IMG/VR virus record: IMGVR_UViG_3300047294_000020 | Span: 1-32,319 of that record | Source of the DNA: a virus | Lineage: Duplodnaviria; Caudoviricetes | Strand: one strand, 5' to 3' | DNA: 32,319 nt | Shown: piece after piece, positions 1,125 to 32,318 of the stretch | How positions within the stretch are numbered: the first letter of the stretch is position 1 | How the letters are laid out: every line of letters starts with the position of its first letter | Notes under the pieces: model-generated | Seen by the model: only the letters and a program-made list of their open reading frames with translations | Told to the model about the DNA's origin: nothing | Database searches by the model: none | Position numbers and translations under genes: made by a program

Positions 1125-1348
1125 AGAGGAAGTACATCTATCGCAAGGCAAGCAACGCGCCGTCACCCAGCCTGGAATGCCTGCTGATGGCGTGTGGGCG
1201 AGAGTTGTTGACGACCTGGGAAGTGCTCAAAGACAAGCAGCTGGTGGACAGGCACCTGGCGAGTCTAGACAAAGTCTATGGCGTAAACGCAGAGCAGAGG
1301 GTCAGGCAGTACATGCGAGAGATCAAGAGGAATGAGCGCGGTGGCTGA
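1121..1348 (+). CDS. Hypothetical protein
   Basis: ATGA coupling to upstream gene, overlaps next start. Confidence 0.65.
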   Translation: MKRKYIYRKASNAPSPSLECLLMACGRELLTTWEVLKDKQLVDRHLASLDKVYGVNAEQRVRQYMREIKRNERGG

Positions 1349-2174
1349 CAATGTGGTGAGCTTTGAGATACCAAAGCCACCAAGGCTGAGGTTGAAGGAG
1401 GCACCACCAGACCAGCGCAAGTTAGTAGTGCTGCCGATCAAGGCGGTCTTTGACCAACGATTGCATCACGGTGCAGTGAGAGTGCTGGCAGCGCTGTGTA
1501 GTTACTGCAACAGAGCCGGCATCACATGGGTGAGCCAGACAAGGCTAGCCAAGGACTTGAGCATCACCCAGCAAGCGGTATCAAAGCAGTTCAAGCAGCT
1601 TAGAGAGTGCGGCTACCTGGAGACAGTAAGGAAGGGTTTTAAAGGAGAGAGGACAGACACGCTACGGGTTATCTTTGGCGCAGACATAGACGCAGAGACA
1701 GCCATAGCAGTGACGAGCAGTATTGAGGACACTAGAACACCACAGATGAAAAGGGAGCAAGACATGCAAACAGACAAACCAGAGCCAGCAGCAGGCAAGC
1801 GCAAAGTAGTCAAAAAGAGTCAATCAAAGCGTGGACAACCTGTGCATAAGATACCTAGCACTAACAACCCGCAGGTTGTGCAGCAATCACAACCTTATCA
1901 CAACGTAGAGGTTGTAGATAACACGGAAGAAGACATGAGAGGTCTTCCTGTTATAAGTAGTCTTGTTACAAGTAAACTTCTTAAAGAGAAAGAAGCAGAC
2001 ATGTTAGTACTGAACAACTTAGAAGTTAACGAGTTGAAGTCGGATGGCATGACAGACACGCAGATCGCTGACAGCCTCAACACGCTGCTGCCGTTGTACA
2101 AGGCCGAGGGCATCACACCCACATCCAAGGTCTTGATGGCTGGAATACGTCAATTGCAGGCAGATGCCCGATGA
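1332..2174 (+). CDS. HTH replication initiator-like protein
   Basis: VLAALCSYCNRAGITWVSQTRLAKDLSITQQAVSKQFKQLRECGYL winged-HTH typical of phage Rep proteins; low-complexity linker carrying iteron-like repeats. Confidence 0.75.
   Translation: MSAVADNVVSFEIPKPPRLRLKEAPPDQRKLVVLPIKAVFDQRLHHGAVRVLAALCSYCNRAGITWVSQTRLAKDLSITQQAVSKQFKQLRECGYLETVRKGFKGERTDTLRVIFGADIDAETAIAVTSSIEDTRTPQMKREQDMQTDKPEPAAGKRKVVKKSQSKRGQPVHKIPSTNNPQVVQQSQPYHNVEVVDNTEEDMRGLPVISSLVTSKLLKEKEADMLVLNNLEVNELKSDGMTDTQIADSLNTLLPLYKAEGITPTSKVLMAGIRQLQADAR
1831..2030. promoter_or_regulatory. Putative replication origin inside initiator gene
   Basis: DnaA-box match TTATGCACA on - strand at 1841-1849; palindromes ACAAC-N6-GTTGT at 1864-1879 and 1900-1915; ACAACC half-sites at 1835 and 1889; AT-rich stretch downstream. 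Confidence 0.6.
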
Positions 2175-9310: not shown

Positions 9311-9574
9311 ATGTCATGGGACGAACTAGACGCCATTGGCCAGAACACCGACATCCGAGATGTTGACCAAAAGAGAGAAGATCTTGCCAGGCTAACCCTG
9401 CGGGTATTTAGCTCTGAGGACGGCCAGAAGCTACTCCAGTGGCTTAAAGACATGTATGTGAATGTGCCCATCGCCGTGCCGGGCACAGACCCCTCACACG
9501 CTTTCTTTGCTGAAGGGCAGAGAACAGTGGTGCGGGACATCGAGGTACGGATTAACACTGCAAGGAAACTATGA
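9311..9574 (+). CDS. Bbp19-like portal-adjacent protein
   Basis: VFSSEDGQKLLQWL...AFFAEGQRTVV motif and position between portal and scaffold. Confidence 0.75.
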   Translation: MSWDELDAIGQNTDIRDVDQKREDLARLTLRVFSSEDGQKLLQWLKDMYVNVPIAVPGTDPSHAFFAEGQRTVVRDIEVRINTARKL

Positions 9575-10347
9575 CAGACACAGCAACAGTCGAGCCCGGT
9601 ACATCCGGCCTACTTGACAACGTGCAAGCAAGTGACGAAAGCCAGCCAATCAACCCCCAGTCGGTCGAGATCGACCACAAGGCTGCAGATCCAAGCGCGC
9701 CAGCGCCAGAGGATCCTCTAGAGAGACCCGACTACTGGCCAGAAAACTTCTGGAAGAAGGACGACAACGAGCCAGACCTAGAAGGCATAGCCAAGAGCTG
9801 GACAGATCTGCGTAAGCAAATCAGCCAGGGCAAACACAAGGCACCAGCTGACGGCAAATACAACCTAGAAGTATTTGGAGAGGAAGCCGAAACCAACCCC
9901 ATGGCAACCACTCTCTCCAGCTGGGCAAAAGACAATGGATTATCCCAAACTGCCTTTGACGACCTAGTCGGTAACCTGCAGACACAGGCCAAAGAGCTCA
10001 TGCAAGGCGACATGATTGACCCAGCTGTAGAGATGAAGCAGCTAGGACCCAACGGTGGCGCTATAGTCAACGGCATGGTGGACTGGGCACGTGGCCTGGT
10101 CAACAAGGGCGTGTGGTCAAAGGATGACTTTGAAGAGTTCAAGATCATGGGTGGCACAGCCAGGGGCATCACAGCTTTGATGAAAGTCAGAGAGGCCTAC
10201 GAGGGCAGGGTGCCAACACAGAGCGCACCGCTCGAGGGCGCGCCAAGTAAGGATGAGCTCTATCAAATGGTTAATGATCCTAGATATAAAACAGACACTG
10301 CCTACAGACAGAAGGTAGAAAAGATGTTCCACGCTACAATCAAATAA
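9571..10347 (+). CDS. Capsid scaffolding protein
   Basis: Acidic; ERPDYWPENFW and DPRYKTD motifs; upstream of capsid. Confidence 0.8.
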   Translation: MTDTATVEPGTSGLLDNVQASDESQPINPQSVEIDHKAADPSAPAPEDPLERPDYWPENFWKKDDNEPDLEGIAKSWTDLRKQISQGKHKAPADGKYNLEVFGEEAETNPMATTLSSWAKDNGLSQTAFDDLVGNLQTQAKELMQGDMIDPAVEMKQLGPNGGAIVNGMVDWARGLVNKGVWSKDDFEEFKIMGGTARGITALMKVREAYEGRVPTQSAPLEGAPSKDELYQMVNDPRYKTDTAYRQKVEKMFHATIK

Positions 10348-10370
10348 CTGCTACAGGAGCAGTTGCCTTT

Positions 10371-10397
10371 AGCCCCTACTTGCTAGGGGCTTTTTTT
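10371..10397 (+). terminator. Intrinsic terminator after scaffold
   Basis: AGCCCCTA-cttgc-TAGGGGCT stem followed by T tract. Confidence 0.85.
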
Positions 10398-10411
10398 GTG
10401 TATAATCCAAA

Positions 10412-10505
10412 CCGTTGTAGTCGTTCACAACAAATTGAAAACCGTTACTCATGCATTAGCCCTCTTAGGAGGGGAACGACCTAGTGCAGTAGTAACGGTT
10501 TTTTT
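10412..10505 (+). ncRNA. Candidate small structured RNA with loop-bulge pairing
   Basis: TATAAT at 10401-10406; hairpin 10414-10431; long interrupted stem 10438-10502 ending in T7; GTCGTTC/GAACGAC complementarity. Confidence 0.55.
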
Positions 10506-10509
10506 ATTG

Positions 10510-10755
10510 TCTCGACTCCAGCCGCACCCCACGCGAAAGCAGTGCATTTACATGGATGGCTTGGGATAGAACATAGGGCAGCGCATCACCCCGCTGTTAA
10601 CCCTACCGAACTGTGTGCGAGGTATCGGGCAAGATAGAGGGACAAGGTGAGACAAGACCTCTATCGAATGAATCGCATCCTTATGGGGAAGCTAGTGTGC
10701 TTACGCACATGGGCTTGGGGGAGTACTTCTCACCCTTGGGGAAGTCATGCCCAAA
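10510..10755 (+). ncRNA. Candidate multi-hairpin non-coding RNA or DNA element
   Basis: No ORF of 60 aa or more; at least six stems (see findings); strand is an assumption. Confidence 0.4.
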
Positions 10756-10762
10756 ATAAATG

Positions 10763-10793
10763 TTGACAACAAGTAAAAAGAAATATATATAAT
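10763..10793 (+). promoter_or_regulatory. Sigma70-like capsid promoter
   Basis: TTGACA 10763-10768 and TATAAT 10788-10793 (19-nt spacer) with A-rich upstream tract. Confidence 0.7.
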
Positions 10794-10933
10794 GGTGCAA
10801 GGCTTATCTGGCAACAGACCCTGACCACTGCGAGATGCAGACGACTGGCTAGCGTAACTAGCAAGCATTGGCCCAGATTACTGGCTTACCGGCGCGAGAA
10901 CCCTGTTTTTAATTAACCGAATGAGGTATCCCA

Positions 10934-11776
10934 ATGAGCATTTCTTTAAGCAATGCCTTTGTCACTCTATTCGACGCGGAAGTCAAACAAGCCTACCAAG
11001 GTATGGCAAAGTTGGTTCCGGCGGTTCGCCAGCGTCGTGGAGTAGAAGGTTCAACTGTTAAGTTTCCTAAAGTCGGTAAGGGTGTTGCGACTATTCGCGT
11101 TCCCCAAACTGATGTCACCCCTCTGAATGTTGCATTCAGCTCAGTCACTTTGACTTTGGCTGACTACAACGCAGCAGAGTACTCTGACATTTTCAGCCAA
11201 GCCAAGGTCAATTTCGACGAGCGCCAAGAGTTGGTGCAAGTTGTTGCTGGCGCTATGGGCCGTCGCCAAGATCAGATGATTCTGGATGCACTTACCGCAT
11301 CTAGCACCAGCTTGACCGTCAGCAATGACATTGGTGGCACAGACTCCAACATGAACATTACCAAGCTGCGCGAAGCTAAGCGCTTAATGGACAAGAACAA
11401 TGTTCCACCTGATGGCCGCAACATCATCATTCACGCAAATGGCTTGGCCAACTTGCTGTCTGAGACCAGCGTGACCAGCTCCGACTTCAACAGCGTTAAA
11501 GCGCTGGTGCAGGGCGAGCTCAACACCTACTTGGGCTTTACGTTCCATGTCTTGGGTGACCGCTCTGAAGGCGGCTTGGCTATTGATGCCTCACTTGATC
11601 GCAGCTGCTTTGCATTCCACAAGGATGCAGTTGGCTACGGTGAAGGCATTGCCATGAGAACTGAGATCAACTACATCGCTGAGAAGACTTCTTGGTTGGT
11701 GAACGAGGTCTTCAGTGCTGGCGCTGTTGCCATTGACGATGAAGGTATCGTCAAGATCACCTGCCGTGAAACTTAA
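10934..11776 (+). CDS. Major capsid protein
   Basis: Position after scaffold; AMGRRQDQMILDAL, SSDFN..KALVQGE..TYLGFTF motifs of podovirus capsids; GAGG RBS. Confidence 0.92.
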   Translation: MSISLSNAFVTLFDAEVKQAYQGMAKLVPAVRQRRGVEGSTVKFPKVGKGVATIRVPQTDVTPLNVAFSSVTLTLADYNAAEYSDIFSQAKVNFDERQELVQVVAGAMGRRQDQMILDALTASSTSLTVSNDIGGTDSNMNITKLREAKRLMDKNNVPPDGRNIIIHANGLANLLSETSVTSSDFNSVKALVQGELNTYLGFTFHVLGDRSEGGLAIDASLDRSCFAFHKDAVGYGEGIAMRTEINYIAEKTSWLVNEVFSAGAVAIDDEGIVKITCRET

Positions 11777-30780: not shown

Positions 30781-30851
30781 GTGAGCCAGACAACCAGCAA
30801 GGCCACCAGGCCGAGCCAGTAGATGACTATGTCATAGAGTTGATTACGCAA
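30774..30851 (-). CDS. 25-aa hydrophobic peptide (TTG start; not in track)
   Basis: AAGGAG upstream; MRNQLYDIVIYWLGLVALLVVWLTC; fills gap and couples to next ATG. Confidence 0.5.
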   Translation of the reverse strand: MRNQLYDIVIYWLGLVALLVVWLTC

Positions 30852-31509
30852 GTGAGGTCTCCTTTAGGTTAAGACGTTTGAGAAGGTTAGATACTTGGGT
30901 TGTGCCCCAAGTAATATTGCCACGGGGCGTGGTCACTGAGCGAGCTTGCAACGCTGCAGCAATATCTCTGATGGTGCGTGCGCCGGTGATGGCGAGAATG
31001 TCACGCACGATTGGACCAACGCGCTGGCAGTAGCTGTCAGCATTGGCCTTGATGACTAGGACGCCGGCTGCGGAGCCGATCTCTGGTGTCGGGCACCCAA
31101 GTACTACACCGCGTGCTTTGGCCGCTTGTAGGGCTTGCTTGGTGCGCTTGGAGATCTCTTCACGCTCATGCTGGGCAACCACTGCGCGCACACCAAACTC
31201 TAAGGTGCCTGCGTGTGGCATGTCGGCAGCCACAATGTCTACACCAGCTTTACGCAGTGTCAACAGGAAGGCTGCATCGCGGGAGAGGCGGTCGATCTTG
31301 GCAATCAGGATGGCTGCACCATGGCGACGGCACTGCTCAAGTGCGAGCTCGAGTTGTGGGCGGTTGTCGATCTTGCCTGACTCAATCTCTGTGTACTCGC
31401 CAATGATGTCTGCTTGGTATGAGCTGACCAGCTGGCGCTGTGAGTCGAGGCCAAGGCCAGAGTGGCCCTGCTTGGCGGTTGAAACGCGGTAATAGGCTAC
31501 GTATTTCAT
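30844..31509 (-). CDS. Serine recombinase (resolvase/invertase catalytic domain)
   Basis: YYRVST with catalytic Ser, ESG..DNRPQL, KIDRLSR, EREEISKRTK..L.AAKARG..LG. Confidence 0.92.
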   Translation of the reverse strand: MKYVAYYRVSTAKQGHSGLGLDSQRQLVSSYQADIIGEYTEIESGKIDNRPQLELALEQCRRHGAAILIAKIDRLSRDAAFLLTLRKAGVDIVAADMPHAGTLEFGVRAVVAQHEREEISKRTKQALQAAKARGVVLGCPTPEIGSAAGVLVIKANADSYCQRVGPIVRDILAITGARTIRDIAAALQARSVTTPRGNITWGTTQVSNLLKRLNLKETSLA

Positions 31510-31518
31510 GGCAGCCCC

Positions 31519-31806
31519 TTACTTAGTTGAAATAAGGCGATTGGCAACCTTGATTGCGCCATCAAGTGTTTTCGCAGAGCTCAGAATATTTAATGTTCTA
31601 GCACCACGAATGATAAATGGGCGAGATCTTTCCTCGTATCCCCAGTTGCCTACATCACGGCCTCTGCTGTAGTCAATATATAAAGAATCGCAACGCTCTT
31701 GTAAATTGTGGCAAAAAGATTGCCATGGCTTAACTAGGGATTCAAGGCCTGCTGGTACTTGACCTGTGATTGCAGCTGCTGTGCTAATGATGATATGTTT
31801 TTTCAT
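31519..31806 (-). CDS. AT-rich hypothetical early protein
   Basis: AAAGGAG RBS; first gene of leftward operon. Confidence 0.7.
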   Translation of the reverse strand: MKKHIIISTAAAITGQVPAGLESLVKPWQSFCHNLQERCDSLYIDYSRGRDVGNWGYEERSRPFIIRGARTLNILSSAKTLDGAIKVANRLISTK

Positions 31807-31939
31807 GTTTAACTCCTTTAGGCTTTATCTGCCCGTTGAACATGAACGTATGTTACACGACATTTGTATATCGGTTTTCTAGGGAGTTTCCCTAGTGCTA
31901 CTTCTTGATTGATATCGCGGTGATATACACTCGGCGCCT
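31807..31939. promoter_or_regulatory. Divergent control region
   Basis: Between divergent operons; IR CTAGGGA-gtt-TCCCTAG 31879-31895; IR ATATC-gcggt-GATAT 31912-31926; -10-like TACACT (+, 31926-31931) and TAACAT (-, 31850-31855). Confidence 0.7.
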
Positions 31940-32134
31940 ATGAAACCCAAACTCAAACCTTTTATGATGCGGCTGCACCCACTCACGCGGGAGCTGTTAG
32001 ACAAGGCGGCTGCCGACCAGGGGCGCAGTGTGTCGTCTTTGATTGACCAGAGTGTGCGCGAGCAGCTGCAACCCAAGTACGGCGAGTTGCAACCCAGACT
32101 GCAGCGCTTTCTCTCTGGAGTGCGCCAGCCATGA
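31940..32134 (+). CDS. Ribbon-helix-helix (Arc/CopG-like) DNA-binding protein
   Basis: Beta strand PFMMRL followed by helices LLDKAAADQGRSVSSLIDQSV. Confidence 0.75.
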   Translation: MKPKLKPFMMRLHPLTRELLDKAAADQGRSVSSLIDQSVREQLQPKYGELQPRLQRFLSGVRQP

Positions 32135-32307
32135 CTTATGAAGAGGCAGTGCGCTTGCTGGCCAGAGTGCGTGAAGGCATCTACTACCCTGTGGAGCTGG
32201 TTTCCGAGGCCTTGGCCATGACTGGCGACAGGGACTACGACTACCAGGTGCCACCTGCAGACATGATTGATTTTGTGCAGAACTTACGCAGAGCGGGGCA
32301 GCTATGA
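32131..32307 (+). CDS. 58-aa hypothetical protein crossing into the terminal repeat
   Basis: MTYEEAVRLLARVREG...ALAMTGD; ATGA coupling to the RHH gene and to the RuvC-like start. Confidence 0.75.
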   Translation: MTYEEAVRLLARVREGIYYPVELVSEALAMTGDRDYDYQVPPADMIDFVQNLRRAGQL

Positions 32308-32318
32308 GTGAAACAATA
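32193..32318 (+). repeat. Terminal direct repeat, right copy
   Basis: Identical to 1-126. Confidence 0.95.

Follow-up and report, generated by a model that had tools for sequence, protein, structure and literature searches.

An optional phage cassette in which a key-lock hairpin attenuator probably governs an RNA-based replication origin

In pT181 and pIP501, expression of rep is attenuated by an antisense counter-transcript, which controls the amount of Rep protein. In P4, pairing of the CI RNA in trans causes termination (PMC4825925), and this is the polarity proposed here as well. The ColE1 and MRB plasmids are described as replicating from protein-free origins a few hundred bp long that involve a long RNA together with a small inhibitory one (PMC5043065; PMC3035462), and in the prophage origins of cluster A mycobacteriophages the RepA of related genomes is replaced by a non-coding RNA (PMC7157519). 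Here we describe a phage locus that shares features with several of these systems. A preliminary description, made from the letters alone, had drawn a parallel with P4 CI and P1 C4, and these are indeed its closest kin. No description of the cassette was found in the accessible portions of the literature; the supplement of PMC5737381 and the alignments of PMC10690425 may list such motifs without a function. The locus is best read as a P4 seqA/CI-like attenuator that would set the copy number and incompatibility of an RNA-based origin.

The window—that is, the whole stretch of 32,319 nt analyzed (IMG/VR record IMGVR_UViG_3300047294_000020)—is a podovirus-like phage genome of ~32 kb, 97% complete, with genes for an O-like initiator, terminase, portal, scaffold, capsid, RecE/RecT, and a resolvase-type recombinase. 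A terminal overlap of ~126 nt (1–126 versus 32193–32318) suggests a circular, complete assembly, and the GC skew of the window shows no clear switch. The region 30844–32134 holds the resolvase-type recombinase together with a weak Arc-like repressor match; with neither a CI repressor nor a tyrosine integrase among the 48 ORFs scanned, this is compatible with a plasmid-like state. The switch sits in the 586-bp gap between the scaffold and capsid genes, and the features of the locus are as follows.

9571-10347: scaffold gene
10365..10397, + strand: intrinsic terminator of the scaffold operon (terminator scan), the 5' boundary of the cassette
10380..10406, + strand: predicted sigma-70 promoter of the cassette, with a perfect -10 and a weak -35 at 15 nt
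10414..10431, + strand: hairpin 1, with the key (10420-10426) in its loop; counterpart of the isrK/seqA a1 hairpin
10438..10505, + strand: hairpin 2, predicted intrinsic terminator and trans-acting inhibitor; 13+8-bp stalk, then T7
10519..10750, + strand: non-coding multi-hairpin RNA of ~235 nt (type 8), predicted initiator or primer RNA plus origin
10763..10793, + strand: capsid-gene promoter TTGACA-19-TATAAT, the 3' boundary of the cassette; present here also in relatives without the cassette
10934-11776: capsid gene
1332..2174, + strand: HTH_36/O-like replication initiator of the window phage, context outside the cassette

The promoter hexamers, the two hairpins, the T7, and the complementarity of loop and bulge all lie where the preliminary description had placed them. 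The cassette promoter consists of a -35-like hexamer at 10380-85 and a perfect -10 at 10401-06, separated by a 15-nt spacer that falls outside the 16–18 rule of the promoter scan, which is why the scan missed it; transcription is predicted to start at about 10412–10414. In hairpin 2, the stalk (10438-59/10481-502) encloses an inner hairpin (10460-73) and the anti-key bulge (10474-80), which directly precedes the 3' strand of the stalk, and the T7 occupies 10499-505. The fold has a z-score of -4.77, none of 200 shuffles being as good, and folding of successive prefixes predicts a switch to key pairing at 10481, once the anti-key has emerged, with a duplex of -10.8 kcal/mol. In seven RNA runs (contigs only, picked through the capsid gene) the insert is without cover, which is uninformative because the runs were found via that gene; the contigs start at 10819–10839, a weak hint of the capsid promoter. 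The capsid leader itself (10797-10933, ~135 nt) is strongly conserved in the relatives shown and forms small hairpins; its coverage by lake RNA contigs begins at about 10819, it has no Rfam match, and it is a candidate cis-regulatory RNA. Two further elements were considered and rejected: a small ORF running through the RNA (10396-10569), which has no family match, most indels in the long RNA being frame-breaking, and a 5' AAACCGTT repeat as an antiterminator arm, which the homologues do not keep. A scan of the window found no reverse promoter inside the cassette.

Homologues were collected with a pattern built on the stalk alone, using neither key nor anti-key. This pattern is estimated to occur in 510 viral and 790 metagenome stretches, with additional matches in betaproteobacterial MAGs. 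The 199 pattern matches yielded 162 with a stalk and T-tract (37 were dropped) and, from these, 117 distinct cores, 116 of them with upstream sequence. A perfect loop-bulge match of at least 7 nt was present in 114/116 distinct homologues, which together carry 39 different keys, whereas only 53 of 1308 control pairings between homologues with different keys reached this length; in a held-out metagenome set the match was found in 98/100. Within an alignment of 83 rows, compensatory changes affect all seven key pairs (0/500 shuffles as high) and 15 of the 21 stalk pairs, with 98.7% of stalk cells paired. A -35/-10 signal recurs at a constant upstream distance across 105 homologues. All 114 homologues with matching loop and bulge have a lower stem of 11–15 bp and a T-run of 4–9, and in their terminated fold the key is 83% and the anti-key 90% unpaired. 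The earlier proposals that the loop-bulge pairing is functional and that the element is a genuine regulatory RNA or attenuator are supported. Rfam searches of the window and of 37 homologue loci gave no C4-clan match, and no Rfam model detects the switch. The RNA switch is real, abundant, and uncatalogued.

A second, two-part class of switch combines a constant loop key with a variable second key in a layout closer to that of C4/isrK. Its 52 cores (plus L451, L486, and L504) also co-vary and have no Rfam match, and the class precedes the same long-RNA types in 48/48 cases. The b'/b1 second site on the P3 hairpin is absent from class I, to which the window belongs; in class II, matches of at least 8 nt at this site were found in 44/52 cognate versus 15/408 non-cognate comparisons.

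The preliminary description had taken the RNA to be self-contained and had noted its place inside the head module; it is neither self-contained nor tied to that module. Among 80 capsid relatives, 74 had a measurable scaffold-capsid gap, which was short in 64 (193–259 nt) and long in 10 (586–627 nt). The short gaps hold a terminator (the one at the scaffold end is present in relatives without the insert as well), the capsid promoter, and the leader, and the switch is therefore the front of an optional insert. As read from sequence, it is the 5' part of a cassette of ~340-380 bp composed of promoter, key hairpin, anti-key terminator hairpin, and long RNA, or in some cases with an initiator gene behind the switch. 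Two of seven complete relatives carry the cassette and five do not, and six of the seven have an O-like initiator. The possibility that insert-less relatives carry the cassette elsewhere was rejected, none being found in the five complete records with the switch model, nor in two of them with 12 long-RNA profiles. Beyond the scaffold/capsid gap, cassettes occur at the start of the early operon or in the interval separating terminase from the large gene that follows it.

What lies behind the switch is almost without exception a structured RNA of ~235 nt or the gene of a replication initiator; 74/87 held-out examples lead into a known type of long RNA. At least 12 such types are distinguished; that of the window, type 8, is related to types 0, 2, 6, and 9 and ends in a conserved G-tract motif at 10731-44. 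In type 8, an alignment of 10 rows shows compensatory changes in 31 of the 49 predicted pairs (0/500 shuffles), the structure being derived from the same alignment as the count. Most indel lengths in the long RNA are not divisible by 3, and G-tracts are enriched near its 3' end. The first 120 nt of type 7 are the Rfam motif Betaproteobacteria-1 (RF02932; 83 and 58 bits), a model that matches neither type 8 nor anything else in the window and that occurs in 2/151 sampled bacterial genomes, there without the window's switch. These two bacterial copies (L602 and L603) have the same 3' extension as phage type 7, and one of them directly follows urease accessory-like genes. No sequence likeness to the ColE1 origin was seen in the cassette, three long-RNA types tested had no plasmid match, and blastn searches with the insert found nothing usable among phage and plasmid records. 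At one other locus (L731), a tRNA-like sequence lies directly behind the switch.

The function of the long RNA is suggested by what stands in its place and by what stands beside it. Where the switch leads into ORFs, five of six cases reach a replication initiator (the exception is L741), and these initiators are of three unrelated kinds: HTH_36 (L303), O-like (L758), DUF1376 (L835 and L784), and P2 gpA-like (L795). Of 13 held-out switches without a known RNA type, five are followed by ORFs, an initiator being reached in four cases and a small ORF and MazG in the fifth. Relatives of the L303 HTH_36 protein have long hairpin leaders with upstream complementary boxes, an association for which chance was not controlled. 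In low-GC phages (L606-L610), HTH initiators likewise stand behind long hairpin leaders with upstream complementary boxes of 8–12 nt.

In phages of lambdoid layout, the cassette occupies the place expected for O and its origin, and adjoining it are headless initiators—that is, proteins of 115–138 aa that match only the C-terminal part of initiators, whose full-length homologues have an extra N-terminal ~150 residues (HTH_36 or DUF1376 in some). The long RNA was present at 68/68 headless loci with at least 1.5 kb of upstream sequence, and the window's class of switch at 36/80 headless loci. A mixed scan found the long RNA near 39/39 headless versus 1/23 full-length initiators, a comparison whose Fisher p overstates independence because the headless proteins form one clade, indicating one origin of the pairing with the long RNA, and whose full-length controls came from phages more distant than those behind the long-RNA profiles. 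Within this clade the long RNA is never lost (64/64 rows), and its type and side change repeatedly. Five complete carriers had no HTH_36 and no primase-helicase match, three of them having only the headless initiator; some carriers encode a primase-helicase or DnaB nearby. Near-threshold Rfam int-alpA matches lie just upstream of the headless gene at four loci (L486:2685-2758, L477, L451, and L485). Because the switch of related phages fronts initiator genes, or the RNA is kept where the initiator has lost its DNA-binding half, the long RNA likely starts replication. As in RNA-initiated origins, a structured non-coding RNA stands in for an initiator protein, to judge from the comparison of genomes.

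The window phage differs from these in having its own initiator gene, with palindromic iteron-like sites near 1864-1915 and 2014 that resemble sites repeated in relatives, and no headless initiator protein was found in it, so that its cassette would be a second origin. The window's clade keeps its protein initiator with or without the cassette, which is therefore dispensable here.

We therefore propose, as a likely though not secure reading, that the key-lock hairpin attenuator determines how often an RNA-based replication origin directly behind it fires. In cis, the nascent anti-key would pair with the key while the 3' strand of the stalk is still to be transcribed, closing a ring around the 5' strand; the 3' strand, tethered to the polymerase, could not then wind two helical turns, and the stalk of ~21 bp would be unable to zip while its 3' end remains in the polymerase. 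The terminator would consequently fail, with read-through into the long RNA. Transcripts that do terminate would be RNAs of ~92 nt with an exposed anti-key, able to bind the key of new transcripts in trans and to force their termination, a negative feedback proportional to genome copy that would confer key-specific incompatibility or superinfection exclusion. The long RNA would take over the job of the initiator's DNA-binding head and open the origin, most likely by staying hybridized to the DNA or by serving as a primer, in the manner of ColE1 RNA II; instead of priming, it could recruit the headless protein or just expose DNA. In the window phage, such an origin might operate alongside the protein initiator, perhaps to sustain a plasmid-like state. 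The reading draws on the covariation, the prefix folding, the polarity shared with P4, the tie to initiators, the single copy per carrier record, the long-RNA types common to both switch classes, and the exact DnaA-like boxes of two type 10 RNAs. It is weakened by the protein initiator that the window's clade retains, by the single clade of headless initiators, by the lack of likeness to ColE1 and of plasmid matches for the three types tested, by the GC skew, by DnaA boxes that are not enriched in the family as a whole, by Betaproteobacteria-1 in bacteria that lack the switch, and by the primase-helicase or DnaB near some cassettes.

The anatomy and some of the key words match isrK/seqA–C4, the genes behind the cassette mostly run in its direction, and the preliminary description was right that no CI repressor is visible (no CI-type repressor was found among the 48 ORFs scanned in the window), all of which would suit P4-type immunity or an attenuator controlling downstream protein genes (here capsid and tail), with the long RNA as a leader. 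This we consider improbable, since the capsid gene has its own promoter and 64/74 relatives lack the insert, since the downstream genes are unrelated from site to site, and since the long RNA lies downstream of the headless initiator gene in 4/64 rows. A second key target is also missing: matches within the window are at chance level, and a seqC/a2-type target occurs downstream in 2/79 homologues versus 1.2 by chance. Classical P4-type immunity over a gene operon is thus unsupported, whereas key-specific exclusion acting on replication remains likely.

To about the same low degree we credit the idea of an accessory or selfish RNA module that spreads by recombination, its anti-key RNA shutting down co-infecting phages of the same key and its long RNA having some other role. 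The patchy distribution of the cassette speaks for such a module, as do the swapping of the switch as a block in near-identical phages (in L006 and L007 the switch is 65–66% identical, the flanks 95–100%) and the free combination of keys with long-RNA types. Against it, the cassette is present as a single copy in 50/50 carrier records and is never lost beside headless initiators, and the long RNA is intact wherever the cassette is an add-on; moreover, selfish spread can be a side effect of the origin proposed above.

More doubtful than either of these is a role of the long RNA as a switch-gated timer for long operons. HK022 put is a cis-acting processive antiterminator RNA, and the long RNA, richly structured and placed ahead of long operons (capsid-tail, portal, and early genes), could resemble it; such a function would leave unexplained both the strict tie to headless initiators and the initiator genes that take the RNA's place behind the switch. 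Type 10 deserves separate mention, in that three of its RNAs (L227, L249, and L312) have at their end two DnaA-like boxes in inverted orientation, which could form a hairpin, and two type 10 RNAs end in exact boxes; DnaA boxes are not enriched across the long-RNA family. We give least credence to a function of the long segment at the DNA level, in which a single-strand origin or a set of helicase-loading hairpins, and so still an origin, would be exposed by gated transcription, for although covariation cannot separate RNA from single-stranded DNA and the hairpin of type 10 holds DnaA-like boxes, G-U pairs on the transcribed strand and a dedicated promoter and attenuator in front argue for RNA.

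Returning to the replication origin gated by the attenuator, a broader generalization seems to us evenly poised: that freshwater betaproteobacterial phages share a widespread class of interchangeable RNA origins, in which at least 12 RNAs of ~235 nt replace the lambda-O-type DNA-binding head, perhaps recruit the headless protein, and are fired via a same-strand key-lock attenuator, dozens of keys defining incompatibility or superinfection groups. If true, this would explain how many abundant small freshwater phages replicate with no recognizable initiator, primase, or polymerase, would assign a role to Betaproteobacteria-1, an orphan Rfam motif, and to a dozen uncatalogued RNAs, and would add a further family of RNA-initiated replicons with a new control logic, inhibitor and target residing on one transcript. 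From an engineering perspective, cassettes of ~370 bp with at least 39 orthogonal keys could serve as RNA switches or as small replicons compatible with one another.

Compared to the plasmid systems, the switch is like pT181 and pIP501 in that a small RNA would force premature termination ahead of a replication function. As with RNA I/RNA II of ColE1 and with MRB, in which the loop sequence of a small inhibitor sets incompatibility, the key is proposed to do so here; in those plasmids the inhibitor is a full antisense RNA of the opposite strand, whereas the inhibitor predicted here is a prematurely terminated 5' portion of the target transcript itself, with a key of 7–9 nt. The mycobacteriophage origins are set apart by their description, being actinobacterial and parABS-linked, with no key-lock attenuator mentioned in the accessible text (PMC7157519). 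Betaproteobacteria-1 (RF02932) is an sRNA gene in Rfam, and the switch and the link to replication fall outside that model.

The closest comparison is with P4 seqA/CI, P1/P7 C4, and N15, in which, as here, the loop of an upstream hairpin pairs with a bulge that immediately precedes the 3' strand of a long stalk. One homologue (L288) has a key identical to the P4 loop, the loop of class II is similar to the isrK consensus, and trans pairing, which causes termination in P4, is predicted to do the same in the switch. The C4 (RF01695), isrK (RF01394), and c4-a1b1 (RF03163) models miss the switch while matching P4 and N15 as positive controls, and the switch model in turn does not match the P4 or N15 RNAs. 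The switch differs from C4/CI in having one recognition site rather than two and no P3 hairpin; in a stalk that lies 6 nt past the key hairpin and carries a terminal U-tract, so that it forms its own terminator; and in the absence of a downstream a2b2/seqC target, the region behind it being non-coding and the switch gating a long RNA or an initiator rather than icd/kil-ant. Judged by model match, second site, and downstream target, it thus appears to be a variant of the C4/CI kind that stands outside C4/CI, yet the shared bulge-before-3'-strand design and the coincidence of some keys with P4 and N15 indicate that it works alike and is probably kin of seqA/CI–C4.
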